64,000 nucleotides of DNA from an uncultured Chloroflexia bacterium (GTDB taxonomy: Bacteria; Chloroflexota; Limnocylindria; Limnocylindrales; CSP1-4), in contig CAVQJC010000017.1 of assembly GCA_963712745.1 (NCBI GenBank), forward strand, positions 224,001 to 288,000, read 5' to 3'. Shown here piece by piece: positions 2,559 through 64,000 of the stretch (the first letter of the stretch is position 1; each line of letters opens with the position of its first letter). The translations under genes were made by a program, and so were the position numbers. The notes under the pieces are model-generated. The model did no database searches. It was given only the letters and a program-made list of their open reading frames with translations, and had not been told where the DNA came from.

Positions 2559-2974
2559 CCGACGAGGACGGCTCCGCCCCGGAGTCCACTCCCCAGCGCG
2601 AGGTCCGTCACCGCCCGGAGTGGGAGATCCGCTGGCGCCAGGCGCGCAATGCCCCGCCCCCGGTGGTGCGTGCGGTGCTGGCCAACGTGGCAGTGGCTAC
2701 CGTCGGTGGCATCGTCCTGCTGCTGACCGACTGGCTGGCCAGCCAGGGGGTGCTGCCGGCCTTCCTGCTCGACCTGGGGCCACTCATCTACGTGGCCGTG
2801 GTCATCGTCAGCGGAAGCGTCTTCACCTACCTCTGGGTCGAGCTGCCCACCGGCGTCCCCGGCGAGAAGCGCAGCTCCCCCTGGGCTGCCGTGCTCGGCT
2901 TCTTCGCCAGCATCCCCATCGTCTACCTCGCGCTGGTGATCATCTTCGAGGTCCTGCGCCCGCTCTTGCCGTAG
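2555..2974 (+). CDS. Hypothetical membrane protein (about 3 TM)
   Basis: Three hydrophobic segments; GTGA overlap with upstream stop; GAGGAGG RBS. Confidence 0.75.
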   Translation: MTDEDGSAPESTPQREVRHRPEWEIRWRQARNAPPPVVRAVLANVAVATVGGIVLLLTDWLASQGVLPAFLLDLGPLIYVAVVIVSGSVFTYLWVELPTGVPGEKRSSPWAAVLGFFASIPIVYLALVIIFEVLRPLLP

Positions 2975-3017
2975 TGCCTGCTAGCATCGACGTGTCGCGC
3001 GACGGCGCCACTCCGAT

Positions 3018-3093
3018 GGGGGAGTAGCTCAACGGTTAGAGCGGTCGGCTTATATCCGACTGGTTCCAGGTTCGAATCCAGGCTCCCCTACCA
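3018..3093 (+). tRNA. tRNA-Ile, anticodon UAU
   Basis: 76-nt cloverleaf: acceptor GGGGGAG/CTCCCCT, D stem GCTC/GAGC, anticodon stem GTCGG/CCGAC with loop CT-TAT-AT (TAT at 3051-3053), GGTTCGAATCC T-arm, discriminator A and encoded CCA. Confidence 0.93.
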
Positions 3094-3200
3094 ACCCCCA
3101 GCACTCTGGGCGCCTGGCGCAGGACTCGCGTCACGGACACACGAAGGCCGCGCGGCCGACCCTTTCGAGTCTGCACGCGCGGCCCGTGCTGCAAGCGCCA

Positions 3201-3224
3201 GTCAGCTACCGATCGGTAGCTGAC
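3201..3224. terminator. Perfect 24-bp palindrome, probable bidirectional terminator
   Basis: GTCAGCTACCGATCGGTAGCTGAC between the convergent tRNA and sugar-binding-protein gene. Confidence 0.6.
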
Positions 3225-3246
3225 AGCACCCGCTTGAGGGTCCGAG

Positions 3247-4251
3247 TTATGCGGCGCAGTTCGGGCTGCTGCCGGGCTCGTCGACCGGAGCGAACTGGTA
3301 GTAGTCGCACGCGTTGTCCGGGGTGAGCAGCACCATGTCGATGTACTGCTTCTCGGGGAGGTCGGTGCTGCCGCGTCTTGATGTAGGCGTCCGCCTGCTC
3401 GGCCGACTGGAGATCGCCATCTCGGCGACCGGCTGCAGCGAGGTGGCCTTCAGCTCACCGGCGTTGATGGACATGATGGCGTCATCGCTGCCGTCGAAGC
3501 CGACCACGATGATGTCATCCATGCCGGCAGCCATGACCGCGGCCTGGGCGCCGAGTGCCATGGTGTCGTTGCCGGCGATGATGCCCTTGACGTCGGGGTA
3601 CTGCTGGAGCAGCTGCTCGGTGACCTGGAAGCCCTCGTCCTGGCTCCAGTTGGCGGTCTGCTGGGCGACCATCTCCAGGCTCGGGGATCTCGTCGAGGAC
3701 GTCGTGGTAGCCCTGGCTGCGGACGCTGCGCGTTGGTGTCCGTGTCGCGACCGGTCAGCTCGATGTAGGTGCCCTCTTCGCCCATCAGCTCGGCCGCAGT
3801 ACTCGGCGAGGATGGTGGCGCCCTGGTAGTTGTTGGAGACGATCTGGGCCACGGCCACGCCGTCCTGCGTGATCTCGCGGTCGACGAGGAAGCTGCGGAC
3901 GCCCGCGTCGGCGGCCAAGCTGGACCGCAGCCACGCTGGCGTCAGCGCCTGCGTTGTCGAGGATGATGGCGAGGGCGCCCTGCGCGACGCAGGTCTCGAA
4001 GAGCTCGGCCTGCAGCGACGGCGTCGTCGTTGTGGACGAGGCGGTCTGGTGCGTGTAGCCCAGTTCCTCGGCCTTGTCCGCAGCGATCTGCTGCATGGCG
4101 CCGAAGAAGGGGTTCTCCACGCCCGGCACGATGACGCAGATCAGGCCGCCCTCGGCCATCTCGTCGTCCTGCCCGAGGCGACCATGCCGGTCGAGGCCGT
4201 GAGCGCCAGGGCAGCGCTGAGCGCCAGCGCGGTGTGCGTCTTGTTGAACAT
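3247..4251 (-). CDS. Monosaccharide ABC substrate-binding protein, D-apiose-binding type (RbsB fold); several frameshifts
   Basis: Joined ORF pieces give a signal peptide (MFNKTHTALAL), ENPFF, AIILDNAGADAS, DREI, QIVSNNYQGA, ANWSQ, GNDTMA, VVGFDGS; GGAGG RBS before ATG 4251. Confidence 0.85.
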
Positions 4252-4268
4252 CCGTTCCTCCATTCTTC

Positions 4269-5456
4269 TCACTTCGTGGGCCGGCCCATCCGGCCCACTC
4301 CGTTCACTCCTCGGGTGTGTTCAGCGTCGTCCCTGTCGCTCCTCCTTTCAGGTGCTGCCGCTGTCGGCGTGTCGGAGTCGTCTGCGTGGATGACCTGGGC
4401 GGCCTGCTGCTGCAGGGCCAGCCGCCGCTCGGCGCGCTGCTGGAGCTGGTCGATGATCAGGGCCAGCACGATGACGGTGCCGGTGATGATCAGCTCCGGA
4501 ACGACGGAGATGCCCATCAGCGTCAGGCCGTTGTTGAGCGTGCCGATGACGAACGCGCCGATGATCGTGCCGAGGATGGTTCCGCGGCCGCCGGCGAGCG
4601 AGGTGCCGCCAAGCACGACCGCGGCGATGGCGTAGAGCTCGTAGTACAGGCCGATGGCGGGGTGTGCCGCCACGAGCTGGCTGGCGATGATGAGGCCGAC
4701 CGTGGCGGCGCAGAAGGCACTGATCATGTAGACGATCATCTTGGTGCGGTTGACGCGCACGCCCGAGAGTTCCGCGGAGCGCTCGTTGCCACCGACCGCG
4801 TAGACGGCCCGCCCGAACGGGCGTCCGCGTGGTCACGAACCAGGCCACCACCGCGAAGAGCACGAGGATGACGATGGCCCAGGGGACGACCCCGAAGGCC
4901 TCGCCGGTGCCCAGCTCGCGGAAACCGGTGTTGCCCAGCTCCTCCTTGCCGACGAGGTTGGGATAGGTCCCACCGTTGTTGATGATCCCGGCCAGGCCAC
5001 GGGCGACCATGAGCATGCCCAACGTGGCGATGAACGGGGCCACGTTGAAGCGGGTGATGATGAAGCCGCTGACGGCGCCCATGAAGGTGCCCGCCGCCAA
5101 GCGAGATGACCAGCACCATCCAGGTGTGCGGGAAGATGACCCAGTCGGCGACCTGTCAGGCCTTCGTGGATGAGCAGGCCGGCGACGATGCCGGTGAAAC
5201 CGACGATCGAGCCGACCGAGAGGTCGATGCCGCCGGTCAGGATGACGAAGGTCATGCCGATGGCGAGGATGCCGTTGAGCGCCGTCTGCTTGATGAGGAT
5301 CTCGATGTTGGCGCCAGTGAGGAAGGCACTCTCCACCCAGGCGAAGAACAGCACCAGCACGATGAGCGCGATGAAGGCGCGACCGCGGAGCAGGAACTGG
5401 GCGACCTCGGTCCGGGTCATGCCGCGCGTCTTGTCGGCCTGCGCATTCGCCGTCAC
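4269..5456 (-). CDS. Sugar ABC permease (RbsC family); frameshifted
   Basis: GMTFVILTGGIDLSVGS, PFIATLG, YELYAIAAVVLGGTSLAGGRG spread over three frames. Confidence 0.88.
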
Positions 5457-5491
5457 TGGATCACCTCGACGGTCCCACTTTCATTGCCTAC

Positions 5492-7059
5492 TCAGCTGTC
5501 GACCGCCGGTCCGTGACCGATGGCCGACGCGTCGACCAGCTCCTTCTCGGTCGCCCGGTCGCCCTCGAACTCGGCCACGACCTCGCCCTTGCTGAGCACG
5601 AGGATGCGGTCGGACATGGCCATGACCTCCTTGAGCTCCGAGGAGACGAAGACGATGCCGAAGCCCTCGCTGGCGAGGCGGCTCATGATCTGGAAGATCT
5701 CGGACTTGGCGCCCACGTCGATGCCACGCGTGGGCTCGTCGAGCAGCAGCACCCTGGGCTCGGTCATCAGGCCCTTGGCCACGACGACCTTCTGCTGGTT
5801 GCCGCCGCTGAGCGAGTCGATGCTGTTGCGCGGGATCGGCCACGCGGACCGAGAGGTCGTCGATCATCTGGTCGACCGCGGCACGTTCCTTGCGCAGCGG
5901 ACAGGTAGAACCGGTTGAGGTAGCGCTTCAGCGAGGCCAGGACCATGTTGTGGGCCACCGACAGCGTCGGCACCAGGCCCACCGTCTTGCGGTCCTCGGG
6001 CACGAGCACGACGCCGGCGTCGATGCGGTCGGCCACCGATGCATGCGGCGAGTCCCTGCCCTCGAGGCAGGACCTCGCCGCTGGCCTCGGGTCGGATGCC
6101 GGCGAGCACCTCCATGAGCTCGGTGCGACCGGCGCCCATGAGCCCGTACAGGCCGAGGATCTCGCCGGCGTGGACCTCGAGCGAGACGTGGTCGAGCAGG
6201 TAGCCGCCGCCGAGCCGCGGCAGCGTCACGTCCTTGACCTCGAGCAGCGTCTCGCCGACGTCGTGCTCGGTGCGGCGAGAACAGCGAGGCCGGCGAGCGG
6301 CCGACCATCTGCTCGATGATCCAGGCCACGTCCACGTCGGCGGTCTCCGCGTGGGCCACGATCGCTGCCGTCGCGCAGGACCGTGATGCGGTCGCCGACC
6401 TGCAGCAGCTCCTCGAGCTTGTGGCTGATGTAGACGATGGCCACGCCACGCGCCTTGAGGTCGGCGATGATGCGGAAGAGGCCCTCGACCTCGGCCTGGC
6501 TAAGCGCGGAGGTGGGCTCATCCATGATCAGCACGCGCACGTCGTGCGTGAGCGCCTTGGCGATCTCGACGATCTGCTGCTGGCCGATGCGCAGGTTGCC
6601 GACCAGCTCATCGGGGTCGATGTCCTGGCCCAGCCGCTCGAAGAGCTCGAGCGCCAGCTTCCGCTGCGCTGCGCGGTCGATGGCCGGGCCGCGGGTGATC
6701 TCCTGGGCCAGGAAGAGGTTGTCCAGCACCGTCAGGTTGGTGCACAGGTTGAGCTCCTGGAAGATGATGCCGACGCCGTGCTGGGCCGCGTCGGTGACGC
6801 GTGGGCAGGACCACCGGCTCGCCGTCGATCGAGGATGCGACCGTCGGTCGGCTGCTCGACGCCCGCGAGGACCTTCATCAGCGTCGACTTGCCGGCGCCG
6901 TTCTCGCCCACGAGCACATTGACCTCGGCCTTCGAAGACGTCGAAGGTGACGTCGTCGAGCGCGGTCGTGCCCGGGAAGACCTTGGTGATGTGCTCGGCG
7001 CGCATGGGTACGCGCAGCGACATCGGCTGCGGTGTGGCAACCGGCGCAGCCATCGTCAT
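5492..7059 (-). CDS. Sugar ABC ATPase (RbsA-type, two NBDs); frameshifted
   Basis: [46 protein letters not shown] in alternating frames. Confidence 0.9.
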
Positions 7060-7749
7060 CGCTCGATGACCTCGATGGGCACGAGCTCGATCTGGCTGAC
7101 GTCGATGGTCGGCTGGTTGAAGGTGCGCAGCGTGAAGGCGCCGGTGAAGTCGATGGTCTTGCCCTGCAGGTTCTCCTTGTCGAGGTCCTCGAGGTCGGCC
7201 ACGACCTTCTTGTTGATCTCCTTGGCGACCTTGCCGTACTCGGTCTGATCGCTGAAGTCGTTGAACTCGATGAAGCCGGTGGCATCGCGGACCGAGGTTT
7301 CGTCACTGGGGATGCGCGTGCCGATCCAGGCGCGGAGTCTGATGGGTCCGTCGTAGCCGTCGAGGTCGATGCCGATGCTGCCCTTGCTGCTCTCGATGTC
7401 GACGTCGGTGACGCGTGCCGCTACCGGTGACGCGGTAGACGTGTGCGTCGCCGGTGGTGATGCGTCCGAGCTCCTCGGCGACGGGCTTCAACTCCTCGGT
7501 GGCGATCATGCCGTCGGGCCCCGGCTCGATCTCGTTGAGCACGTCGGCGAGCGGCACGGCGTTGTCACGGATGGCGGTCTTCACCGTCTCCCAGTTGTCC
7601 TCGACGTAGACGACCGGGTCGAACTCGACGGTGAGCGCCGCCTCCTCTTCGGTGGAGACGACGGTGAAGCCGAACAGCAGCGCCACCACCGCGAAGACCG
7701 CCACGGCCACGATGCCGACGGCCATGCCCGGACTGACTCTCTCCCTCAT
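7056..7749 (-). CDS. DUF2291-family exported protein associated with apiose/erythritol ABC systems; frameshifted
   Basis: N-terminal [39 protein letters not shown]; ATGA overlaps on both sides. Confidence 0.8.
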
Positions 7750-8756
7750 GCCACCTCTACTCCCATGGGTTCGTTGCTCGTGCTGCCGTGATCCGATGCA
7801 GAGTCCGTCGCCAGCAGGCGCTCCGCGGTGTAGGTGTCGGTGATGAGGCAGTTGATCCAGCCGCCAACGATGGCCGCACGGATGGCCTCGGTCTTGCCAG
7901 GCCCGCCGGCCACGGCGATGGCGCGAGGCACGCGGCGCAATTGCTCGAGCTCGATGCCGATGACGCGGCCGTCCAGCGGCGTGTCCACCGGCCGGCCGTC
8001 CGCGCACAGGTAGCGCAGGCCGATATCGCCCACGGCCCCGGCCTCGCGGACCGTGCGTAGCTCCTCGGAGGAGAAGACGTTGCCGGAGCTGGCCAGCAGG
8101 CCGGATGTCTCCTGGCCGCCGATGCCGACCAGGGCCACGTCGAGCTCGTCGAAGAGCGCCATGGCGCGGGCCACGTACGGGTCTTGCACCAGCACCTCTC
8201 GGGCACCGGCCGAGCCGACGCTGCTGGGCGCCGGCAGGAACGTGCCCTCGCCGTGGAGCAGGTTGGCCATGCGCCGCACGAGGTGGGTCGCGTGGCCTTC
8301 CGCGGCCGGGTCGCCGCCCCCGCCGAGGATCTGCACCACGCGCACGTCCTTGACGCCACTGACCGGGTGCATGGCGTCGACCATGGCCAGCAGCGTGGCG
8401 CTCCACGAGCTGACGCCGATGACGTCGCCGGAGCGCACGGTGGATTCCACGTGGAAGGCCGCTGCGGCCCCGAGTTCGCGCACCGCAGCAGCGTCGTCGT
8501 CGCGGGAGATGTCGACGATCTCGGCCTCGGCCAGGCCGAAGCGGGCTTCGAGGGCTTCCTCGAGCTCAGGGTTGGTGCCGCTGGGCGCGCGAACGCTGAT
8601 GCGTACGATGTCCTCGTCCTGGGCCCCCTTGAGCAGTCGCGAGACCTTGGGCTGAGACAGGCGCAATCGAGACGCGATCTCGGGCTGCTTCAGGCCCACC
8701 TCGTAGTAGAGCCGTGCGACGCGGGTCATCAGGCGAAGTTCGTCGGCCCGTGCCAT
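7746..8756 (-). CDS. SorC/DeoR-family sugar-phosphate-binding transcriptional regulator
   Basis: VARLYY..Q.EIA..L..SQPKVSRLL HTH, IGVSSWS, DVALVGIG, GAVGDI, K.EAIRAA..GG.IN.LITD. Confidence 0.93.
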   Translation of the reverse strand: MARADELRLMTRVARLYYEVGLKQPEIASRLRLSQPKVSRLLKGAQDEDIVRISVRAPSGTNPELEEALEARFGLAEAEIVDISRDDDAAAVRELGAAAAFHVESTVRSGDVIGVSSWSATLLAMVDAMHPVSGVKDVRVVQILGGGGDPAAEGHATHLVRRMANLLHGEGTFLPAPSSVGSAGAREVLVQDPYVARAMALFDELDVALVGIGGQETSGLLASSGNVFSSEELRTVREAGAVGDIGLRYLCADGRPVDTPLDGRVIGIELEQLRRVPRAIAVAGGPGKTEAIRAAIVGGWINCLITDTYTAERLLATDSASDHGSTSNEPMGVEVA

Positions 8757-8757
8757 G

Positions 8758-9705
8758 TCAGTTTGCGACGACCTCCCGTGCGCCGGCAGCGATGCCCTCC
8801 GGGTCCAAGCCGTAGCGGTCCAGGAGGAACGTCGGCGAGCCCGTGGGACAGAAGCCGGGGAAGCCCAGCAGGCGCATGGGCACAGGTCGTTCGCTGACCA
8901 CGACCTCGGCCACGGCGCCACCGAGCCCACCGCGAACGATGGCCTCCTCGGCCGTGACGATGCCCTTGGTCTCGCTCGCCGCGGCGACGATGGCCGCGCG
9001 GTCGATGGGGGAGACGGTGGCCATGTTGATGACGCGTGCCTCGATGCCACTGGCCGCGAGGATGTCGGCCGCGGCCAGGGCGCGCGTGACCAGGACACCG
9101 TTGCTGATGATGGTGACGTCGTCGCCATCGCGTAACTGGATGGCCTTGCCGATCTCGAACTGGTAGCCGTCGGGATGGACGACCGGCACGCCGATGCGAC
9201 TGGTGCGGATGAAGACCGGGCCCTCGTACTCGTACGCGGCACGGACGGCCTGCGCGGTCTCGACCGGGTCGGCTGGCACGATGACGACGAGCCGGTCGAT
9301 GGCCCGCGTCCAGGCGATGTCCTCGATGGAGTGGTGGGTGGGCCCGAGCTCACCATAGGCCACGCCGCTGCTGACACCCACGAGCTTGACATTGGCACCG
9401 CTGTAGGCCGCGTCGACCTTGATCTGCTCGAGCGCGCGTGCGGTCAGGAATGGGCTGGCGCCCGCAACGAACGGGATCTTGCCGCCGTTGGCCAGGCCTG
9501 CTCCGATGCCCACCATGTCCTGTTCGGCGATACCGACATTGACGACACGCTCAGGCATGACCGCCGCGAGTTTGGAGATCTTGGTCGAACCGACAGAGTC
9601 GTTGACCACGGCCAGGATCCGCTGGTCCGCCCCCGCGAGCTCGATGAGCGTGTCGACGAAGGCGTCACGACAGTCGTAGAGCTGGACTGGAGCTTCGGCA
9701 GTCAC
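8758..9705 (-). CDS. aptB: Transketolase C-terminal subunit (apulose-4-phosphate transketolase subunit B-like)
   Basis: DCRDAF, NVGIAEQDM, RALEQIK, ELGPTHHS, EEA..RGGLG; GTG start overlapping upstream stop; aptB call depends on context. Confidence 0.8.
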   Translation of the reverse strand: MTAEAPVQLYDCRDAFVDTLIELAGADQRILAVVNDSVGSTKISKLAAVMPERVVNVGIAEQDMVGIGAGLANGGKIPFVAGASPFLTARALEQIKVDAAYSGANVKLVGVSSGVAYGELGPTHHSIEDIAWTRAIDRLVVIVPADPVETAQAVRAAYEYEGPVFIRTSRIGVPVVHPDGYQFEIGKAIQLRDGDDVTIISNGVLVTRALAAADILAASGIEARVINMATVSPIDRAAIVAAASETKGIVTAEEAIVRGGLGGAVAEVVVSERPVPMRLLGFPGFCPTGSPTFLLDRYGLDPEGIAAGAREVVAN

Positions 9706-10534
9706 GCCCGACTCCCTTCCAGCTCGGCCACAGCCTGGGCGTACTCCTCGTCGGTGGGCACGCGGTGGTGCCACTCCTTGCGATCCTCGATGAAGGAGAC
9801 GCCTTTGCCCTTGGTGGTGTTGGCGATGAGGCAGTTGGGCTGGCCGGGTGCGAAGGGGAGGGCGGCGAAGGCCTCGAGCAGGGCGGCGTGATCGTGGCCG
9901 TCGACCTCGCGGACGGCCCAGCCGAAGGCCTCGAACTTGTCGGGCAGCGGGTCGAGGCCCATGGTCAGCTCGGTGCGGTCACCCTGCTGTAGGCGATTGC
10001 GGTCGACGATGCAGACGAGCTTGTCCAGCCCAAAGTGGCCGGCCGACATGGCCGCTTCCCACATCGACCCTTCCTGCAGCTCGCCGTCGCCGGTGAGCAC
10101 GAACGTGCGCCGCGAGGCGTCGTCCATCTGGCCCGAGAGTGCGATGCCGACGGCCACCGGGAAGCCGTGGCCCAGCGGCCCGGTGTTGGTCTCGACGCCG
10201 GGCACCTTGTTGCGGTCGGGGTGACCGTTGAGGCGAGAGAGCGGCGCGAGGAAGGTGTCCAGCTCGGCGACGTCGAAGTAGCCGGCCATGGCCAGCGTGG
10301 TGTACAGCGCCGCGGCCGAGTGACCCTTGCTGAGCACGAAGCGGTCGCGCTCGGGATCGTCTGGGGTTCTGCGGGTCGTAGCGGAGCACGCCGCCGAAGA
10401 AGAGCGTGACCAGGATGTCCGATGGCCGAGAACTCGCCGCCGATGTGACCGAGCCCCGCGGAGTGGACCATCTTGATGTCGCGCAGGCGCACGTCGATGG
10501 CGCGCTGCCGGAGTGTCGCCGTGATGTCAGCCAT
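9702..10534 (-). CDS. aptA: Transketolase N-terminal subunit (apulose-4-phosphate transketolase subunit A-like); frameshifted near 10360-10420
   Basis: GHIGGEFS, LSKGHSA, LNGHP, NTGPLGHG, ThDP motif GDGELQEGS, TTKGKG, WHH. Confidence 0.8.
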
Positions 10535-31992: not shown

Positions 31993-32934
31993 CTACTCGG
32001 CGCGCAGCACCAGGATGTGCTGGTGGACGATGTTGGGCACGAACGCATGGGGGTAGCCGTACGGCCGTAGCCGTGTTCCCGCCTGGTACCAGATGAGGTC
32101 GCCCTTGGCGGCGAACCCGTGCGGCTCGGCTCGCGCGGCGAGGTCGGAGGCCACGAAGCGGTAGCGCCCCTGCTGATAGGCGTCGCGCACGATCACGACT
32201 GCGTAGCCCCTTGGCCGCAGGACCCGACGCAGCTCGCCGAAGAGCACTCCCATCCGCTCGAGGTACTCCGCGTAGGTCCGGCTGTTGGCCAGGTCGGCCG
32301 GGTCGTCGGTGACCATGGCGTAGTCGGTCCTGCGATTGGCGTACCGCTCGGACAGTGCGCCGCCCGACATGGTGGCCTTGAGCTGCGGGTTGTAGGGCGG
32401 GTCGGTAGCCACGAGGTCGACGCTGGCATCGGCCACGCCCCGGACCAGCTCGAGCGCATCGCCGAGCTCGAGGCGGCAGCCTGACGGGTCAAAGCCCCGG
32501 GGTCCGCCGGGGTCGTTGTCACCGAGGTCGCGCAGCACCGGACCGGACCCGCCGTTCTCGGCCATCGCGGCCTCTACCACCGAGGCGTACACCGCTGCCC
32601 AGCGGGGCTCGATCTCGAACCCGAGCGCGCGGCGCGGGTGCCGGCAGATGGCCGCTCCCAGCAGCGTACCCCCCACGCCGGCGAAGGGATCGAGGACCAG
32701 TTCGCCGCCCTTGGTGAAGAACTCGATCAGCCGCGCCATGAGCCGCGGCGGCTTGTTGGCCCCGTGGGCCTTGCGCGCGGCATGCCCCACCTCGGAGGGG
32801 TAGGCCGTGGTCAGCAGCGACTTGGTGAAATAGAGCCACTCGTCGCCGCTGAGCTCGTTGAGCGTGTTGTTCGGATGCACCACCCGGGTGCTGGGGGAAG
32901 CCTCTGGCACTGGCACGAGCGAAGTATGTGGCAC
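31993..32934 (-). CDS. DNA adenine/N4-cytosine methyltransferase, circularly permuted (TRD - FxGxG - DPPY); start uncertain (32934 or 32910)
   Basis: HGANKPPRL..RLIEFFTK.GE.VLDPFAGVGGT precedes GDA, DLVATDPPY and ELRRVLRPRGY. Confidence 0.85.
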   Translation of the reverse strand: MPHTSLVPVPEASPSTRVVHPNNTLNELSGDEWLYFTKSLLTTAYPSEVGHAARKAHGANKPPRLMARLIEFFTKGGELVLDPFAGVGGTLLGAAICRHPRRALGFEIEPRWAAVYASVVEAAMAENGGSGPVLRDLGDNDPGGPRGFDPSGCRLELGDALELVRGVADASVDLVATDPPYNPQLKATMSGGALSERYANRRTDYAMVTDDPADLANSRTYAEYLERMGVLFGELRRVLRPRGYAVVIVRDAYQQGRYRFVASDLAARAEPHGFAAKGDLIWYQAGTRLRPYGYPHAFVPNIVHQHILVLRAE

Positions 32935-32956
32935 GCGGCGACTATGCTTCTGCTCT

Positions 32957-35900
32957 ATGGCGTTCTTGGGCCGAGAGCGCGAGCTGGCCCAGCTGGCCGA
33001 AGCCGTGCGCCGTGTCGCGGAGGGGCGACTCGGACGTGTGGTCCTTACCGGGCCGGCCGGCATCGGCTGCACGCGCCTACTCGACGAGCTGTCAACTCGC
33101 GTCTCCTCCGTGCCGGGCGTCCTCGCCTGCCGCGGCCGGGCGTACGAGCCGGGTGCGGGCATGCCCTACCAGGCGGTCGGTGATGCGCTGGCCTCGGCGT
33201 TCAGGAAGGTACCTGACGAGCGGGTTCCCGAGATCGTCAGCCGGGTGGGCGCGGACCTTGCGGCTCTCGTACCCGGCCTGGCCGAGCGGCTCGACGACCT
33301 GGCTGTCGATCGCACCCCACCCCAGCTCGAGGCGCCCGAGCTGCTGGGCCGGAGGGTAATCGAATCGATCCTGGGCACGCTGGAGCGCCTGTCCGCCGGC
33401 GGTGTCGTGCTGCTCATGCTCGAGGACGTCCACTTCGCGGACCCCGCGACGCGCAAGCTCATCGAGGCGCTCCAGGACGTGGGCCGCTCGCTGCCGGTGT
33501 GCCTGGTCATCACTTACCAGGCTGAAGAGGTGCACCGCCGACATCCCATGCAGGCGCTGGCCGACCGACTGGCCGAGGACGAGGAGGTCGTGCGGCTCAG
33601 ACTGGGGTCGCTCAGCGCCCCCGAGGTCGAGCGGCTCGTGGTCGATGCGCTTGGAGAGAAGCCTCCACAGAACGCGCTCACGGCTGTCATCGAGGGCGCT
33701 CGCGGGAATCCACTGATCGCCCTCGAACTCGCCCGCAGCGCTCGTTCGCTCGAAGGCGTACGCCTTTCCGACGCGTTCGACCAGCTCTACGGCGCACGCG
33801 TGGAGGCGCTCTCACGGGAGGCTGGACGCGTCGTGCGCGTGCTGGCGGCGGCCCGCTCGCCCTTGCTGCGATCGACGGTGATGTCGATCCGCCCGCAAGA
33901 CGGCCGATTGACGATCCAGGGCCTTGAGGAGGCCATCGCCGGCGGGTTCGTCATCGAGGCCGGCGAGCGTCTCGTCATCTCGCATGAGTTGTGTGCGGAA
34001 GCGGTGGAGGCACTCGAACTGACGCCCGAGCGCCAGGGGATCCACGCGGCCATGGCCGAGAGGCTGGTCGAGGAGCCGGCGCTGGCTGCATGGCATTGGG
34101 CACGGGCGGCTCGACCACAGGAGGCCCAGGCCGCCCATGTCGAGGCCGCCCGCATGGCGTCGCGCCTGGACCCGTCTGACACGGTGTTGCTGCACTACGA
34201 GGCCGCGCTCGAATTGCCCAGCCTTGAGCCGGTCGGGCCTTCGGAGGCCGCCACGCTGCTGGCCGGGGCGGCTCGTGCTTCCGCCGCGGCAGGTGCGTAT
34301 CGAAGCGCTGTGGCCCTGATGCGGCGTGCCATCGACAGCCGGGCCGCCCGTGAAGCTTCGAGGCACCGCGGGGAGCGCGATCCAGCGACGCGCATCGCGC
34401 TGGGCGAGATGTACGAGGACCTGGGGCGCTACCAGTGGAACGCCGGCGACCTCGACGGCGCCATCGCCTCCATCGAGCGCGCGCTCGGGATCATGCCGCA
34501 GGCACCAAGCTGCAGCCGAGCCTGGGTCCTCGCCTCACTGGCGCAGCACCTCATGCTCGATGGCCGCTTCGACCAGAGCCTCAGTGCTGCCGAAGAGGCT
34601 CTGGGGATGGCGGCCGCGGCCGAGACCGGTGGCGAGGACACGCTGCGGGTGCGAGCACATGCGCTCTGCACCAAGGGGGTCGACATCGCCTACCGCGGAG
34701 ATGCCGAGCTTGGATTGGCTCTGCTCGAGGAGGCGGCGACACTGTCGAGGCGCACCGGTCGACTCGATGACCTCATGCGCGTGGCTGCCAACCGCACGTA
34801 TCTCCTGGATCTGGACCTCCGCCGCGAGGACGCCGTGGCCGTGGTCCAGGAGTTCCTGCAGGACGCCGCGGCCGGTGGTCTTGAGGCGACATACGGAGCG
34901 TTCCTGCGTGGCAACGCGGCCGACATCCTCTTCCACCTGGGTCGGTGGCAGGAGGCCGAGCGGCTTTGTCGCAGCGACCTGAAGTGGCAGACGAACTGGC
35001 AAACGAGCGGCCATGACATCACCTGGCTGTCGCTCGCGGTGCTCGGCTTGCTCCTGACCGAATCGCGCGCGGACCAGGAGGCGACGAGCCTCGTCGGCCG
35101 GGCGCTGCTCGAGCTCCACGCCGTCGCGCCCGGCCAGGGCATGAATTTCGTCATGCGCTCGGCGGTCAGCCTCGCGCTCTGGAACGGGCGAGTCGAGGAG
35201 GCTCTCAGTATCGCCGAGCGCGAGTGGCCACGCGCCATCGAGAGCGATGAACTCGGCATCGTCGCCATCGCCGCGTCGACGGCCATGGAGGCGGCCGCGG
35301 CTGCTGCCGAACATGGTCGAGCCGACAGCAACGCGGGACTGATCGCCCGGGCACGTGCACTGACCGAAGGCGTACTGCCCGCGGCCGAGTCGTATGTCGC
35401 CGGCTCCAGCATCGGTCCGGAGTTGGGTGGACGCCGGGAAGCGGAGTTGATGCTACAGACGGCGCGGGCGCATGCCCTGCGCGTTCGCGGCCGCCCCGAT
35501 CCCACCGCCTGGGACATGCTTGCCCAGGCGTGGGAACGCAATACCGTGCCCTATCGGCAGGCCAAGGCGCGCTGGTGGCAGGCACTGGCGATCCTGGGGG
35601 AGGCGCCCGAGGAGGATCGCGAGTCGGCCCGGGTGGAGGCCAGTGCGCCGCTGTCGGAGGCCTACCGCATCGCCCGTGGCCTGCCGGCCCTGCCCCTGCT
35701 TCGGGAGATCGTGGACCTCGCGGCACGAGCTCGAGTCTCGTTGCCCATCGCCAAGGAGGTCGACCGTGACCTCGTTGCTGTCGGCCCTGGCCGGCCGCCG
35801 GACGCCGGTGTCGGCAACCCCGATATCGCTCGTGCCATCGAAGAGCGCGTCATCGCCACGTTGCGCAAGGGCCCGGCCGATACGTACGGGCTCAGCCCCC

Positions 35901-54151: not shown

Positions 54152-54224
54152 TGTCGTGTCTGCTGCAGTCGCGTAAGGTGCGCGCTTCGGCTGCGTGACT
54201 CGGCACGCGTACAAGGGAGGGTCC

Positions 54225-55412
54225 ATGCGAATCACTCGAATCTCGGTGGCGGCCGGTCTGGCCCTGGACCTGGTCGTCGCCGGTGTCGTCGCCGTCGCGG
54301 GTCAGGGCCCCGCCACGTTCACGGTGGCACGGGACGGGAGCGGCGACCACGAGACGATCGGGGCCGCGATCGCGGCTGCTGCCGCAGGGGACACCATCCT
54401 CATATCCCCCGGCGAGTACGTCGAGAACCTCTATATCGACAAGCCCGTCACCCTCTCGGGCGACGGGCCGCGTGAAGACATCGTGCTCAGGCCGAACGAG
54501 CGCGACCCGCAGATCCTCGACATCTACGGCGAAGGCCTGGACGAGGACTACTTGCCGGTGACGGTCTACGTCGACGGTGTCGACGTGACGCTCGAGCATC
54601 TGGTCGTCAAGGACGAGCAGGGCGAGACCGTGTCGCTGGTGCTCATGGGCGGCTCCCCGACCGTGCGCGACATCGTCGCCGGCTACGTTGGTGTCCGTGG
54701 GCGTGCCTCAGCCGTGCTGGAGGGCTCCGACATCCGACGCGTCAGCCTCTGGGGACCCAACATGACGACCGTGCGCAACAACACCGTCCGCAACATGATC
54801 TGGGCCAGCACGGGCGCCACCGGCGTGGTCGAAGGCAATCTCGTGCTCGACCGGCCGATCATGGCTGACCGAGGTGCCAGCCTGGAGATCGTGGGCAACA
54901 CCATCAGGCCCCTGGACGACGAGCTGGGCATCAACATCATCGATGGCGAGACCACGGCCGTGGTCACGGGCAATGATGTCCAGGGCGGCTGGCTCGGCAT
55001 CCACCTCGAGGTCGCCAAGCAAGGGCGGATCGAAGGCAACAGCCTCAGTGGGCACGAGGTCGGCATGCTGGTCAAGCAGAGCCGGACCGTTGTGCGCGAC
55101 AACACCGTCTCCGACATCAGCGAGACCGGGATCGTCATCGTCGGTGATGGCATCCAGGCCGAGGACAACATGGTGACCGGCGGACGCATCGGCATCCACG
55201 TGGAGAAACCGGACACCTATCCCCCGGAGCTTCTCCTCGATGAGCCCACCCGCATCACCGGCAACTCGATGACCGGCGCCTCGCATTTCGGGATGGTGGT
55301 GGAGGGCTCCGCGGAGATCTCCGGCAACACCATCTGTGCCCGGCGGGAGCCCTTGCGGGTCCTCGGCGGCGATCCCCGGATCGGCTCGAACGACATCTGC
55401 GACGTGGACTGA
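54225..55412 (+). CDS. Exported right-handed parallel beta-helix (pectin lyase-like/NosD/PbH1) protein
   Basis: VARDGSGDHETI.AAI..A..GDTI.I.PGEY.ENL.IDK cap; repeated I.GN.I/V..GI turns; GGGAGG RBS. Confidence 0.85.
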   Translation: MRITRISVAAGLALDLVVAGVVAVAGQGPATFTVARDGSGDHETIGAAIAAAAAGDTILISPGEYVENLYIDKPVTLSGDGPREDIVLRPNERDPQILDIYGEGLDEDYLPVTVYVDGVDVTLEHLVVKDEQGETVSLVLMGGSPTVRDIVAGYVGVRGRASAVLEGSDIRRVSLWGPNMTTVRNNTVRNMIWASTGATGVVEGNLVLDRPIMADRGASLEIVGNTIRPLDDELGINIIDGETTAVVTGNDVQGGWLGIHLEVAKQGRIEGNSLSGHEVGMLVKQSRTVVRDNTVSDISETGIVIVGDGIQAEDNMVTGGRIGIHVEKPDTYPPELLLDEPTRITGNSMTGASHFGMVVEGSAEISGNTICARREPLRVLGGDPRIGSNDICDVD

Positions 55413-55506
55413 GGGCCCGCTGTCCAAGATGGAACCCCTGATCGCCGAGCATCCCCAGACTGGGTAGGCGCGGCCGACCACGACCGGGCCAGCACCGGAG
55501 GAACCG

Positions 55507-56055
55507 ATGCAGCGAGAGCTTGTCGAGCAGGCGATCAAGGGGGACCACGACGCGTTCAGTGAGCTCGTCCGGCTGTCGAGCCGGAAGCTGTACGCCGTGG
55601 CCACGTTGATCCTGCGTGACAAGACGCGAGCAGAGGACGCCACGCAGGAGGCACTGGTGGCCGCCTGGCGCGACCTCTCGGGGTTGCGCGACCCGGACCG
55701 TTTCGAGGCCTGGCTCCACCGCGTGCTCGTGCGCGAGTGCTACCGCATGGCCAAGCGCGAGCGCCGGCGCATCGAGGTCGAGGGCCAGGTCCGCGCCCTG
55801 ACCGAGACCGACGACCCCAGCCGCCAGCAGGCTGCTCGCGACGAGCTCGAGCGTGGGTTCGCCCGCCTGCCGGTCGACCAGCGGACCGTGCTCGTACTGC
55901 ACCACTACGTGGGCTACTCCTTTCCAGAGATCGCTGAGACGCTGGGTATCCCGGTGGGTACCGCCAAGTCGCGCGTGCACCGGGCCACCAGTGCCATGCG
56001 TGCCGCGCTCACCGCCGATGCCCGCACTCCGACCCTGGGAGGGTCTTCGGCATGA
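55507..56055 (+). CDS. ECF sigma-70 factor
   Basis: AEDATQEA, LRDPDRFEAWL, LP.DQRTVLVL, EIAETLGIPVGTAKSR. Confidence 0.95.
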   Translation: MQRELVEQAIKGDHDAFSELVRLSSRKLYAVATLILRDKTRAEDATQEALVAAWRDLSGLRDPDRFEAWLHRVLVRECYRMAKRERRRIEVEGQVRALTETDDPSRQQAARDELERGFARLPVDQRTVLVLHHYVGYSFPEIAETLGIPVGTAKSRVHRATSAMRAALTADARTPTLGGSSA

Positions 56056-57314
56056 ATGACCGCGGCAAGGCTCCCTGGGACGAGCCTGTGAACGAGCTCG
56101 ACACCGATCAGCTGCTCACCGAGTGGTTCGAGGAAGAGGCGCCCCTGCGTGAGCCGGCCCTGCTCGCGCCCAACGTCATCGCTCGCACCGCGCTCACGCG
56201 TCGACGCTCCCGGTGGTTGGTACGCGATTGGTGGCGCGATCTCCTTCGCGGCGTTCGCTGGCCGTCGCTGGTGCCCGCGCTGGCCGCGGGCGTGGTCGCG
56301 ATCGTGGCTCTTGTCTTCGCGGTCGTGACGTGGCTGCCCGAGCGCGCCTCGCAGCCCGTCCTCCCCGACTACGTGCCGGCCGATGCGCTCATCGTGTCGA
56401 GCAACGACGCATCGAAGAAGTCGACGATCGCGGAGGCTATCGCCCAGGCGCAGCCCGGCGACACGGTGGCCATCCTGCCGGGCGAGTACGAGGAGAACCT
56501 CCTCGTCGACAAGGACATCACGCTTCTCGGCGCTGGGGCGGCGGAGGAGATCGTGGTGCGTCCGGCCCAGCCGGACGAGCCCGTCATCCGTATCGACGGC
56601 GGGGATGCCACGCTCACCGGCTTCACTGTCACGGGGCCGGGCGGTGGCGTTGAGGTCGTGGCCAGCCAGGCGGTCATCGACCAGATGGTCTTCCGGGATG
56701 CCGGTCAGCGGTCGTGGAGGTTCACCGGCTCGGGTTGGGAGGAGTCCGACAGTGCCCGACCGTCGATCCTGGTGGAGCTCTTCGCCGAGGCCACCATCAC
56801 CAACAACCTCCTCGACGGCGGGGGCGACATCGAGGTGCAGCGTTCGTCGACAGCGCTGATCGAGCAGAACGAACTCAGCAACGGCCCGTCCATCGCCCTC
56901 ATGGACGCGACCGGCGAGACCGTGGTGCGCGGGAACACGATCACCGCATCTGGCGTCTTCTCGATCGAGTCCGCGTCACCGACGGACCTGCTCATCGAGG
57001 GCAACGTCATCCGTCAGCGCGATCCGGGCATCGCGATCTTGGCCTTCGACCTGGACGGCACCATCCGCGGCAACACCATCGAGGGCGCCAACGTGGGCAT
57101 CCAGATCGTGGATCGCACCACCGCGACGATCGTTGACAACACCATCGACGCGGTGGGTGTGGCCTTCGAGATCCACGAGGGCGTGGAGCCCACGATCAGC
57201 GGCAACGATCTCTGCGGGCAGAACGCGATCATCGCGCTCGTCGGGAGTGCCACCGCGCCGGACGTCTCGGACAACACGCTCTGCAAGGGCGTGCCGGTGG
57301 TCTACGAGCGGTAG
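56052..57314 (+). CDS. Putative anti-sigma factor: short cytoplasmic domain, one TM, extracellular beta-helix
   Basis: ATGA-coupled to sigma; TM ALAAGVVAIVALVFAVV; TIAEAI..A.PGDTV.I.PGEYEENL; PbH1-type repeats. Confidence 0.8.
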   Translation: MNDRGKAPWDEPVNELDTDQLLTEWFEEEAPLREPALLAPNVIARTALTRRRSRWLVRDWWRDLLRGVRWPSLVPALAAGVVAIVALVFAVVTWLPERASQPVLPDYVPADALIVSSNDASKKSTIAEAIAQAQPGDTVAILPGEYEENLLVDKDITLLGAGAAEEIVVRPAQPDEPVIRIDGGDATLTGFTVTGPGGGVEVVASQAVIDQMVFRDAGQRSWRFTGSGWEESDSARPSILVELFAEATITNNLLDGGGDIEVQRSSTALIEQNELSNGPSIALMDATGETVVRGNTITASGVFSIESASPTDLLIEGNVIRQRDPGIAILAFDLDGTIRGNTIEGANVGIQIVDRTTATIVDNTIDAVGVAFEIHEGVEPTISGNDLCGQNAIIALVGSATAPDVSDNTLCKGVPVVYER

Positions 57315-57399
57315 CGATCCCTGGCCCCGGGCCACCCGGGCCATCACCGACTCGAGCTCTGCGGCGGCCTGCGCTTCGTGTGCGACGTCCTCCCGCTGC

Positions 57400-57655
57400 C
57401 GGGCGCCTGGCTGTGCGTCCGCTGCACGAGTCCGACGATGCGGGCGCCTGGCTGTGCGTCCGCTGCACGAGTCCGACGATGCGGGCGCCTGGCTGTGCGT
57501 CCGCTGCACGAGTCCGACGATGCGGGCGCCTGGCTGTGCATCCGCTGCACGAGTCCGACGAAGCGGGCGCCTGGCTGTGCATCCGCTGCACGAGTCCGAC
57601 GAAGCGGGCGCCTGGCTGTGCATCCGCTGCACGAGTCCGACGAAGCGGGCGCCTG
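57400..57655. repeat. 41-bp tandem array (6 copies plus partial; 3 of type A then 3 of type B)
   Basis: CGGGCGCCTGGCTGTGC(G/A)TCCGCTGCACGAGTCCGACGA(T/A)G at 57400, 57441, 57482, 57523, 57564, 57605. Confidence 0.95.
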
Positions 57656-57793
57656 CGCAAGTCCATCGGGCCGCGTTGGCACCCTTCCTTTGCGCCCGGT
57701 GCCCGGCGGTGACGTTCGTTGTCACCCCGTGAGAGGCTTCGGCAGATACCGGAACCGGCATACGCCGAAGTGGCGCACCGAGGTCGAACTGGT

Positions 57794-57927
57794 GCACCCG
57801 GTGCAGACACCCGGCACCCGGTGCAGACACCCGGTGGCCGATGGCAGACACCCGGTGGCCGATGGCAGACACCCGGTGGCCGATGGCAGACACCCGGTGG
57901 CCGATGGCAGACACCCACTGGCCGATC
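57794..57927. repeat. 21-bp tandem array (4 copies plus 1 variant), preceded by a 20-bp duplication
   Basis: GCAGACACCCGGTGGCCGATG at 57823, 57844, 57865, 57886, variant at 57907. Confidence 0.95.
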
Positions 57928-58005
57928 GATGGAACCTTTCGCACCGCGCGGCGACGCAATAGGGTATGAGCGCGGCCAAGTGTGTCGCGCCGAAGCGGTG
58001 GCCAC

Positions 58006-58575
58006 ATGACACGAGAGCTCGTCCGGCGAGCGATCGAGGGCGATCACGACGCGTTTTCCAGCCTGGTGGACGCGTCGATCGATCGCCTGTATGCCGTGGC
58101 CACACTCATCCTGCGTGACTCGGACCGTGCCCAGGACGCGGTGCAGGAGGCGCTCATGTCCGCCTGGAAGGACGTGCGCGCGCTCCGCGATCCCGACGCG
58201 TGGGATGCCTGGCTCCATCGCATCACGGTGTGGGCCTGCTACAAGGCAGCCAAGAAGGAGCGTCGACGCAAGACGGTCGAGCTGAAGGTCGTTCCCGACC
58301 CCGAGCGCACGACCGCTCCTGACTCCGCGGCTACGCTGGCCAACCGCGACCTGGTCGAGCGGCAGTTGAACGACCTGCCCATCGAGCATCGCGCGGTCAT
58401 CGTCCTGCGCTTCTACCTCGACCTGCCTCTCGACGAGGTGGGCGACATCCTCGACATCCCTGTCGGGACCGTGAAGTCCCGCTTGCATCGGGCACTGGCC
58501 TCACTCCGCGAGTCGATGGCCGAGCCCGCTGCCGGCATTCCCCCGGTCGGCCTCCTGAAGGACGGCACAGCATGA
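58006..58575 (+). CDS. ECF sigma-70 factor (paralog of 55507)
   Basis: AQDAVQEA, LRDPDAWDAWL, LPIEHRAVIVLR, LDIPVGTVKSRLHRA. Confidence 0.95.
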   Translation: MTRELVRRAIEGDHDAFSSLVDASIDRLYAVATLILRDSDRAQDAVQEALMSAWKDVRALRDPDAWDAWLHRITVWACYKAAKKERRRKTVELKVVPDPERTTAPDSAATLANRDLVERQLNDLPIEHRAVIVLRFYLDLPLDEVGDILDIPVGTVKSRLHRALASLRESMAEPAAGIPPVGLLKDGTA

Positions 58576-60008
58576 ACGACCATGTCCGCTTCGAGCGGCT
58601 GTTCGCAGATGGCATGCATGAGCTCGCGCCCAAGCGTGCGCCCGACCGGCTCCGGACGAAGGTCAAGGACGAGACCGGCGACGTGCGTCCGCGCGCGCGT
58701 TGGCTCGCGCTCATGAAGGAGCCCCCCATGCGTACCAACTCACACCTCGCTGTCGGGTCACCGACTGCTCGAGTGGCGGCCATCGTCACCGCGACCCTGC
58801 TTGCGGCGATGATGATCGTGGGCGCCGGCATCGCCGGTGCTCAGCTCTTGGCCGCCGACGGCCCGATCATCGTCGACCAGTCTGGTGGAGGCGCGACCAC
58901 CACCATCACCGAGGCCATCGCCATGGCCGGGGACGGCGACGAGATCCTGGTCCGTCCCGGCACCTACACCGAATCATTCGTCATCGACAACGACATCGCC
59001 GTGCGTGGCGATGGACCTGTGGAAGACATCGTCGTCATGGCGCCGGAGGGCGGACCGATCGCAGCCACGTCCGGCGAGACTGCGGGCGAGCCGTATGCGG
59101 TGTTGTTGTCCGAGTCCGCGGGCCGCCTGTCGGGACTCACGTTCCGCGGTCAGCCCTCGATGGTCATCGCCAGTGGCGGCTCGCCCACGGTCACGGGCAA
59201 CATCATGGACGGCGTCGGCTGGGCGTTCGATGGCAGCAACCTCTCATCCGGCGGAAGTTCGATCGTGGCCACTGCCGGGACGACCGCGAACATCACCGGC
59301 AACACGGTTCTGAACGGTGGGCCGATCGCGGCCTTCGAGGGTGCCAGTCCGATGATCGAGGGCAATCGTCTCCAAGGCGGTCCGCACATCTTCCTGAGGG
59401 GCGCCGCCTCCGACACCATCGTGCGGGGCAATGAGATCCTCGGCACGCATTCGCGGGGGATCGCCGTGTCCAGTCCCGGGCCCATCATCGTCGAGGGCAA
59501 CCGCATCTCGGACTACGGGCAGGCCGGCATCCGCGTCGGGAGGAACGCGGGGGCGGAGGGCTACGAGACCCAGGTGAGGAACAACACCATCGAGGGGACA
59601 GGAACAGGGGTCGCCGTCACGCAGGGCGGAGCCCCGACCATCGAGGGCAACACCCTGTCGGGCAACGACCTCGGCATCGAGCTGAGGGGCGGGACCGCCA
59701 CCGTTGCCGACAACACGTTCAATGACAACATGGTCGCGCTCAGCTTGGGGCCCGGCAGCCACTCGGTCGATGGAAACAACATCTTCGCTGGCACCACCGG
59801 CATCATGGCCACGGGTGGCGAAGCGCAGCTCACCCGCAACGTCGTCGTGGGCGCGTCCGGTCGTGGCATCGCCATCGGCGGCACGTCGAGCCCGATGCTC
59901 GCCGGCAACCGCTCTTGCGGCAACGGCGAGAACCTCTGGGTGAGCGAGGACTCCACCCCAAGGATCGACGAGTCCAACGAGATCTGCGAGGACGCGGTGG
60001 CCGAGTAG
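58572..60008 (+). CDS. Putative anti-sigma factor with TM and extracellular beta-helix
   Basis: ATGA-coupled; APDRL...RPRARW cytoplasmic part; TM; VDQSGGG..TTI.EAI..A.DGD.I.VRPGTY; many I.GN repeats. Confidence 0.8.
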   Translation: MNDHVRFERLFADGMHELAPKRAPDRLRTKVKDETGDVRPRARWLALMKEPPMRTNSHLAVGSPTARVAAIVTATLLAAMMIVGAGIAGAQLLAADGPIIVDQSGGGATTTITEAIAMAGDGDEILVRPGTYTESFVIDNDIAVRGDGPVEDIVVMAPEGGPIAATSGETAGEPYAVLLSESAGRLSGLTFRGQPSMVIASGGSPTVTGNIMDGVGWAFDGSNLSSGGSSIVATAGTTANITGNTVLNGGPIAAFEGASPMIEGNRLQGGPHIFLRGAASDTIVRGNEILGTHSRGIAVSSPGPIIVEGNRISDYGQAGIRVGRNAGAEGYETQVRNNTIEGTGTGVAVTQGGAPTIEGNTLSGNDLGIELRGGTATVADNTFNDNMVALSLGPGSHSVDGNNIFAGTTGIMATGGEAQLTRNVVVGASGRGIAIGGTSSPMLAGNRSCGNGENLWVSEDSTPRIDESNEICEDAVAE

Positions 60009-63620: not shown

Positions 63621-64000
63621 GCGCGGTCGTTCAGCGTGGTCGATATCTCCGCGACGACGCCATCGAGCCGGTCACGGATGTCGCACTCCCAGATCTCATA
63701 GACCGCCCAGTCTGCGGCTTCGAGCTGCCGTCGCTTGCGCGCATCCCGTTCGCGGTTGAGCTCGAACTTCCGGGCCCAAAACTCGGGGTTCGACTTGGGC
63801 AGGTTGGGGTGACAGCGCGGGCAGTGATGCCAGTAGCAGCCGTGAACGAATATCGCGACCTGCCGACCCGGATACGAGATGTCCGGCCGACCCGGGGCTT
63901 GCTTCCAGTTCAGCCGGTAGCCGGGATGCCCAGCCTCCCGAAGTGCCGACCGGAGCTTCCGCTCAGGCTCCGTGTCCTTCGCCCGATTGGCCCTCATCAC
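63617..64000 (-). CDS. vsr: Very short patch repair (Vsr) endonuclease, 5' end at window edge
   Basis: DT.PE, PGRPDI, FVHGCYWH.C, FW..KF..N.ERD, IWEC. Confidence 0.93.
   Translation of the reverse strand: MMRANRAKDTEPERKLRSALREAGHPGYRLNWKQAPGRPDISYPGRQVAIFVHGCYWHHCPRCHPNLPKSNPEFWARKFELNRERDARKRRQLEAADWAVYEIWECDIRDRLDGVVAEISTTLNDRA

Follow-up and report, generated by a model that had tools for sequence, protein, structure and literature searches.

The tRNA gene and its neighbourhood

The window analysed in this study, a whole stretch of 64 kb with about 68% G+C that is chromosomal in character, begins with three protein-coding genes and a single tRNA gene on the plus strand. The first gene, which is cut at its 5' end, encodes an ATP-dependent DNA ligase (2-1363, + strand) and the second a class-V aminotransferase-fold protein (1401-2558, + strand), both assigned by Pfam and NCBIfam, while the third encodes a protein of 139 amino acids (2555-2974, + strand) that has no family match and whose sequence looks to us like that of a membrane protein. 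The tRNA gene follows at 3018-3093. Downstream of it, a sugar ABC-transporter operon and a transketolase gene occupy the opposite strand. Five consecutive genes at 3247-10526 (- strand), encoding a periplasmic binding protein, an ABC permease, an ABC ATPase, a DUF2291 protein and a transketolase, cover only parts of their Pfam profiles, such as positions 153-269 of 269 for the permease and 104-136 of 137 for the ABC ATPase. Such partial coverage implies that this region carries frameshifts or truncations, real or made by the assembly, and the region is either a decaying operon or the site of local indel errors. Split tblastn matches for the ligase and the aminotransferase in four of the related loci described below (L018, L019, L021 and L023) suggest that indels are common in some related MAG assemblies too. 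Neither an integrase, nor phage genes, nor a second tRNA was found in the window by Pfam, by NCBIfam on 33 of the larger ORFs and by ARAGORN. Farther along the window, two successive modules at 55468-60008 (+ strand) each consist of an ECF sigma factor (55468-56055 and 57970-58575, + strand) followed by a NosD-like parallel beta-helix protein (55938-57314 and 58323-60008, + strand), and a further beta-helix protein lies at 54177-55412, all identified by NCBIfam. A fragment of a Vsr very-short-patch-repair endonuclease at the window edge (63617-64000, - strand) and a partial match to a CcrM-like DNA methyltransferase (31993-33165, - strand) hint at DNA methylation systems.

ARAGORN identifies tRNA-Ile(tat) at 3018-3093 (+ strand) as the sole tRNA in the whole window. 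The gene is 76 nt long with an encoded CCA, and the Rfam family RF00005 matches positions 3018-3090 with 63.5 bits (E 1.9e-11), above the gathering score of 29 for the tRNA family; no other Rfam match at the gathering threshold occurs across the window. The acceptor stem reads GGGGGAG/CTCCCCT, with G1 opposite U72, the D arm reads GCTC-AACGGTTA-GAGC, and the anticodon stem is GTCGG/CCGAC. The loop CTTATAT (C32 to U38) holds the TAT anticodon (U34, A35, U36) at 3051-3053 (+ strand), read directly from the sequence, together with A37 and with U38 at 3055. The variable loop is TGGTT, and the T stem is formed by CCAGG/CCAGG, in which A51 (3068) faces A63 (3080); A73 is present and is followed by the encoded CCA. 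Both strands of the T stem are CCWGG words. The preliminary description of this DNA had listed a complete tRNA with a TAT anticodon, A73, a G1-U72 pair, an A-A mismatch in the T stem and U38, and every one of these features is present by sequence, ARAGORN and Rfam. There is a genuine tRNA-Ile(UAU) gene at 3018-3093. The minimum free energy fold of this single sequence is weakly better than those of shuffled sequences (z -1.63); since such a marginal fold is usual for a tRNA, we place weight on the comparative evidence instead.

The identity set of the E. coli tRNAIle comprises A73, A35, U36, A37 (as t6A), A38, U12-A23, C29-G41 and C4-G69. Our tRNA has A73, A35, U36, A37, U12-A23 and C29-G41 in common with this set, although the set may not hold for Chloroflexota. 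It departs from the set in having U38 rather than A38 and G4-C69 rather than C4-G69, with the same proviso that a set defined in E. coli may not fit this phylum.

Conservation of the gene and its flanking elements

The homologues of the window aminotransferase are named at NCBI as proteins of Chloroflexota or Candidatus Limnocylindrales MAGs. From the best 120 homologues listed, 33 were aligned, and the alignment was used for a profile search of genome contigs, which gave 23 loci, all from Chloroflexota MAGs, whose aminotransferases are 47-77% identical to the window protein. The genome of the window itself is absent from these loci, which are separate records made by different assemblers. Two of them (L002 and L015) stop short of the tRNA site, leaving 21 that are informative, and in all 21 the order ligase, aminotransferase, 139-aa gene and tRNA is kept. 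ARAGORN finds a 76-nt tRNA-Ile(tat) beyond the aminotransferase in 20 of the 23 loci, that is, in 20 of the 21 informative ones.

Together with the window, these loci provide 22 copies of the tRNA, all of 76 nt and without a single indel. The copies of the 21 relatives differ from the window tRNA at one to six positions and are 92-99% identical to it. G1, T72, A73, the CCA end, the stem of the D arm, C32, T33, T34, A35, A37 and T38 are invariant in all 22 copies. T36 is found in 21 copies, the exception being a G in L009, so that the TAT anticodon is carried by 21 of the 22. In the alignment, which holds 13 distinct sequences, 99.3% of the cells of the cloverleaf are paired, and compensatory changes are seen at four stem pairs, 27-43, 28-42, 29-41 and 51-63. 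The covariation score of 0.123 was reached by none of 500 shuffles (0.049 ± 0.012), and slid registers of the alignment gave scores of 0-0.044. Such conservation combined with covariation indicates a functional tRNA under purifying selection and not a pseudogene. Besides the A51·A63 of the window, the only unpaired cell in the 22-copy alignment is an acceptor-stem mismatch in L007 (11937-12012), where T3 stands opposite C70.

The copy in L009 (6746-6821), a short-read MAG, has the same tRNA body with a TAG anticodon, the result of the T36 to G difference. ARAGORN therefore calls it a tRNA-Leu(tag), although it is without a long variable arm. Three origins are conceivable for this TAG, namely a true change of the anticodon, polymorphism between strains or an error. 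The ORFs of the L009 locus do still contain ATA codons. If the TAG is real, it shows that the UAU function can be lost within the clade.

Upstream of the tRNA lies a promoter-like element, the TGCTAGCAT element, which reads TGCTAGCATC at 2979-2988 (+ strand), is of the extended -10 type (TG-n-TAGCAT, hexamer at 2982-2987) and ends 30 nt before the mature 5' end of the tRNA. It came to light when the 22 copies were compared over the 90 nt that precede each of them, where they share one conserved block, TG(C/A)TA(G/C)CATC, ending 19-54 nt before the mature 5' end in every copy. The motif has a single match in the 64-kb window, and each of the 21 loci with a tRNA has one and no more, always adjacent to the tRNA and oriented like it. 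The tRNA of L018 is inverted with respect to the aminotransferase, and the motif is inverted along with it. The two also remain together in L004, L006, L010 and L014 despite an insertion of 2-8 kb between the 139-aa gene and the tRNA; the extra DNA in these four loci indicates that the upstream side of the tRNA is a site of gene insertion in some members. The letters of the motif that never change spell an extended -10 element (TG-n-TA...T), and those that vary fall on its least constrained positions. A scan of 2800-3400 for canonical sigma-70 -35/-10 promoters returned no site. Because the motif is private, linked to the tRNA and composed of extended -10 letters, we read it as the putative promoter of the tRNA itself. 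In L017 (2095-2148), the stretch from the motif to the tRNA contains a 9-nt unit, GGCAGCCAA, repeated four times in tandem, which gives the longest leader of all, 54 nt.

Two hairpins are found on the 3' side of the gene. The first is a GC-rich stem-loop at 3146-3184 (+ strand; z of the folded region -3.99), which recurs with near-fixed sequence 3' of the tRNA in 15 of the 22 copies, even where the next gene is a different one. A consensus stem derived for this hairpin shows little covariation, the hairpin of the window matches no Rfam family at the gathering threshold, and a scan of 2800-3400 for terminators with a U-tract found no site. From its position and recurrence, this stem-loop is probably a terminator without a U-tract or a signal for 3' processing. 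The second is a perfect 10-bp palindromic hairpin at 3201-3224, visible in both sequence and fold, which stands between the tRNA and the end, at 3247, of the convergent gene on the minus strand. Hairpins at the matching position in the relatives differ from it in sequence.

AUA codons and other bacterial UAU tRNAs

The codon that this tRNA is expected to read is very rare. Among 118,710 codons counted in the high-GC3 ORFs of the window and the 23 loci, which are crude stop-to-stop calls, there are 42 ATA codons (0.35 per 1000), as compared with 37 ATT, 5,561 ATC and 2,365 ATG codons. Only TTA (16) and ATT are rarer, placing ATA among the three rarest sense codons, and the window alone has five ATA in 13,829 codons. 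For Burkholderia cenocepacia, Muraski et al. (2025, PMC12514573) describe an AUA frequency of 0.6 per 1000 as 'the very low end'. We also asked which residues stand at ATA positions, using a slightly looser, likewise crude stop-to-stop set of ORFs in which 22 of 52 ATA codons have aligned orthologues in our data set. The 122 residues aligned to these codons include 53 Ile, 18 Val, 12 Met, 11 Thr and 8 Leu, with low power since only 22 sites contribute; at one site, the orthologues have mostly Met. The result is consistent with AUA meaning isoleucine in this clade.

The preliminary description had called UAU isoacceptors rare in bacteria, and two papers (PMC3575796 and PMC8450103) agree. One of the nearest known parallels is the tRNAIle2 of Mycoplasma mobile, which, according to Taniguchi et al. 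(2013, PMC3575796), has an unmodified UAU anticodon, requires Arg865 of its isoleucyl-tRNA synthetase (IleRS), and is prevented from reading AUG only on the M. mobile ribosome. The same paper states that an IleRS accepting U34 either has Arg at the position of E. coli W905 or belongs to the eukaryote-like type; neither the window nor the loci analysed contain an IleRS gene. Like the M. mobile tRNA, the gene described here encodes a bacterial elongator tRNA with a genomic TAT anticodon, A37 and A73, and would be expected to read AUA directly. However, the host differs clearly, being a free-living-type Chloroflexota bacterium with high G+C (~68%) and AUA at 0.35 per 1000, whereas M. mobile is a reduced, AT-rich parasite; U38 and G1·U72, which are invariant in the Chloroflexota copies, further set the two tRNAs apart.

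Supplementary Table S1 of PMC3575796 lists 20 bacterial genomes with a TAT gene, nine without tilS and 11 with it. The TAT gene and tilS coexist in Ktedonobacter racemifer, the only member of the Chloroflexi listed there, and in Streptomyces scabiei, Rhodopirellula, Planctomyces and Lactobacillus casei (PMC3575796). Our case resembles K. racemifer in belonging to the same phylum; the coexistence group includes large genomes, in which the TAT gene would be an extra isoacceptor. In contrast to that group, which consists of single genomes or species, the gene described here keeps its sequence and its synteny in 21 species-level MAGs that span two deep sub-clades.

That such a tRNA can work on an ordinary bacterial ribosome is indicated by studies of B. 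subtilis. According to Kohrer et al. (2014, PMC3919564), a tRNAIle with an unmodified U34 shows strong binding to AUA but weak binding to AUG when B. subtilis ribosomes are used, and the tRNA1Ile(G34U) suppressor of a tilS deletion, as in our case a tRNA with a UAU anticodon, reads AUA there (PMC3919564). Unlike that suppressor, which is a laboratory-selected mutant of the major tRNAIle(GAU), the gene described here is natural, anciently conserved and built on a different body. For Limnocylindria, our literature search found no paper on tRNAIle(UAU) or on the status of tilS, but it ran without journal-only papers or bioRxiv supplements, so that a report may exist; PMC11938285 contains no mention of Chloroflex.

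Sequence searches give some hints at the origin of the gene. A blastn search of the tRNA against E. coli genomes was uninformative about its ancestry, the best matches, at 78%, being to plasmid-borne tRNA-Asn. Against collections of phages and plasmids, blastn found no close relative, the matches reaching at most 89% over 56 nt. The top matches in these collections, on Sinorhizobium, Bradyrhizobium and Microvirga plasmids and in the Campylobacter phage PC14, carry CAT anticodons and share with our tRNA the D arm, the TGGTT variable loop and the T arm. They differ from it in having A38, in contrast to the T34 and T38 found here, and the acceptor stem here has G4-C69/G5-C68, as against C4/C5 in the rhizobial CAT tRNAs. 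The pairs C4-G69/C5-G68 are TilS determinants. These resemblances hint at a possible descent from a CAU-type body, either Ile2 or Met, by a C34-to-T change; since ARAGORN cannot separate Ile2 from Met among CAT genes, this ancestry stays a lead.

Proposed decoding role and significance

From the comparison of sequences, we consider it very probable that the gene encodes a functional, independently transcribed tRNA-Ile(UAU) that is a fixed component of translation in a clade of uncultured, high-GC Chloroflexota. The tRNA would be transcribed from its own promoter of extended -10 type, RNase P would remove a leader of roughly 10-45 nt, and IleRS would charge the product with isoleucine. The very rare AUA codons would then be read by direct pairing of U34 with A, as by the M. 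mobile tRNAIle2(UAU) and the B. subtilis suppressor, while competition by tRNAMet, possibly together with the invariant C32/U38 combination, would limit the misreading of AUG. We infer the roles of positions 32/38 and of G1·U72, the modification state of U34 and A37, and the avoidance of AUG misreading.

How this tRNA relates to the lysidine system depends on whether tilS is present in the clade. No tilS was found in the window and the 23 loci, whose 479,519 bp are a tiny part of each genome; a tblastn search with E. coli TilS (from NC_000913.3) gave a best E of 0.38, and in the window, no NCBIfam match to TilS was obtained among 33 ORFs. A loss of tilS is not compelled by the TAT gene either, because 11 of the 20 bacterial genomes with such a gene also have tilS in Supplementary Table S1 of PMC3575796. 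It has about an even chance of being true that the clade keeps both TilS and tRNAIle2(LAU), and that the UAU tRNA is a second reader of AUA. According to the same table, the 11 of 20 TAT-bearing bacterial genomes with tilS are all of those outside Mycoplasma, Bifidobacterium and Neorickettsia (PMC3575796), and PMC8450103, with tRNAscan-SE 2.0, puts the replacement of Ile2 by a UAU tRNA at just 17 of 4036 bacterial genomes, each of which belongs to one of these genera. The TAG copy of L009 points in the same direction, as a sign that loss of the UAU anticodon can occur within the clade. However, if the tRNA is redundant, its strict conservation for a codon used 0.35 times per 1000 would need another explanation.

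The alternative, that the tRNA is the sole decoder of AUA in a clade which has lost both tilS and tRNAIle2(CAU) and whose IleRS, and perhaps ribosome, would be adapted as in Mycoplasma mobile or Bifidobacterium, is one that we hold tentatively, as possible and somewhat doubtful. It would account well for the invariant anticodon loop, kept in 20 of 21 informative genomes with aminotransferase identities down to 47%, and for the conserved promoter-like element of the tRNA's own; one might expect a gene that was no more than redundant to have decayed when the codon it serves is this rare. Neither a CAT tRNA nor tilS lies in the 479,519 bp surveyed, which points weakly the same way. On the other hand, the nine tilS-less bacterial genomes in Supplementary Table S1 of PMC3575796 are Mycoplasma, Bifidobacterium and Neorickettsia, the other 11 keep tilS, and two genera of Planctomycetes keep both genes, so redundancy can persist (PMC3575796). 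In addition, the TAG of L009, if real, implies that another AUA decoder exists. The fuller proposal, that a whole class-level (Limnocylindria-like) clade of abundant, high-GC Chloroflexota of free-living type has replaced TilS and tRNAIle2(CAU) by a dedicated tRNAIle(UAU) with invariant G1·U72 and U38, and that the unusual features at 32-38 and 1-72 contribute to charging or to the control of AUG misreading, we regard as rather unlikely.

It is improbable that this is a regulatory tRNA for a rare codon, whose own promoter would gate a few AUA-containing genes in the manner of bldA, the tRNA-Leu(UAA) of Streptomyces. Both the rank of AUA among the three rarest sense codons and the private, conserved upstream element would fit such a role, but the ATA codons of the window lie in unrelated genes, for the ligase, a rhamnosidase, a methyltransferase and vsr, with no functional theme.

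A separate question is whether the window copy itself is intact, given the A·A mismatch between positions 51 and 63 of its T stem (3068 and 3080, + strand). The mismatch noted in the preliminary description does exist in the window; however, it is not a trait of the family, as the relatives have either A51-T63 (n=12) or T51-A63 (n=9), and A·A is unique to the window among the 22 copies. The window tRNA differs from that of L004 solely at position 63 and from those of L005, L016 and L018 solely at position 51. Of 24 aminotransferase rows, 19 went into a maximum-likelihood tree, with L015, L018, L019, L021 and L023 omitted for partial or split matches. The tree shows two starred clades, of which one is wholly U-A at 51-63 (L016, L017, L020 and L022), and the other, which includes the window, is A-U save for the nested U-A pair of L005 and L009. 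This distribution indicates that the pair has flipped at least twice, and the position of the window in the A-U clade places its A·A one step (T63 to A, at 3080) from the state of that clade. The mismatch is thus either a genuine intermediate or a consensus error, and it could weaken the window copy or be due to the assembly.

There is little likelihood that the window copy is impaired or decaying, with a T arm that A51·A63 would destabilise, even though the mismatch is unique among 22 copies and the adjoining downstream operon looks degraded. A single substitution separates the mismatch from either of the conserved states, and the flips between A-U and U-A, of which the clade has had at least two, require such intermediates. 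Elsewhere the gene is intact, as is its promoter-like motif, and the mismatch may be a mere consensus error.

As for the suspicion in the preliminary description of a C-to-T base-call error at 3051, by which a tRNAIle2(CAU) gene would have been misread, the 20 TAT, one TAG and zero CAT anticodons at the syntenic site of the 21 informative relatives, all from independent assemblies, exclude it for practical purposes, in spite of downstream genes at 3247-10526 so fragmented against Pfam profiles that the assembly or the genome carries indels: all 22 copies, which come from separate records and assemblers, have T34 and none has C34, the window loop has U38 where the closest CAT tRNAs found elsewhere have A38, and the variety of assemblers and records makes it very unlikely that TAT is a systematic error shared by these assemblies. 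In annotation, the TAT at this locus should not be 'corrected' to CAT.

To read AUA without reading AUG is a classic problem of decoding, which almost all bacteria solve with TilS, an enzyme considered essential and specific to bacteria that places lysidine on tRNAIle2(CAU). Natural UAU tRNAs are known exceptions, to our knowledge documented so far in few genera. The tRNA-Ile(UAU) described here is of a kind already known and rare; what is new is that it is lineage-wide. The locus shows a UAU tRNA that is fixed across a deep, uncultured environmental clade, together with a promoter-like element and with invariant G1·U72 and U38. That a tRNA with a putative promoter of its own has been retained throughout the clade, to serve a codon of such rarity, speaks for a non-redundant role. 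The status of tilS in the clade would tell whether loss of TilS extends to free-living bacteria. If it does, the near-universal lysidine system would have been lost by bacteria a fourth independent time, and for the first time beyond the host-associated ones (Mycoplasma, Neorickettsia and Bifidobacterium); if tilS is present, the clade would provide a well-documented case of long-term coexistence of two AUA decoders.
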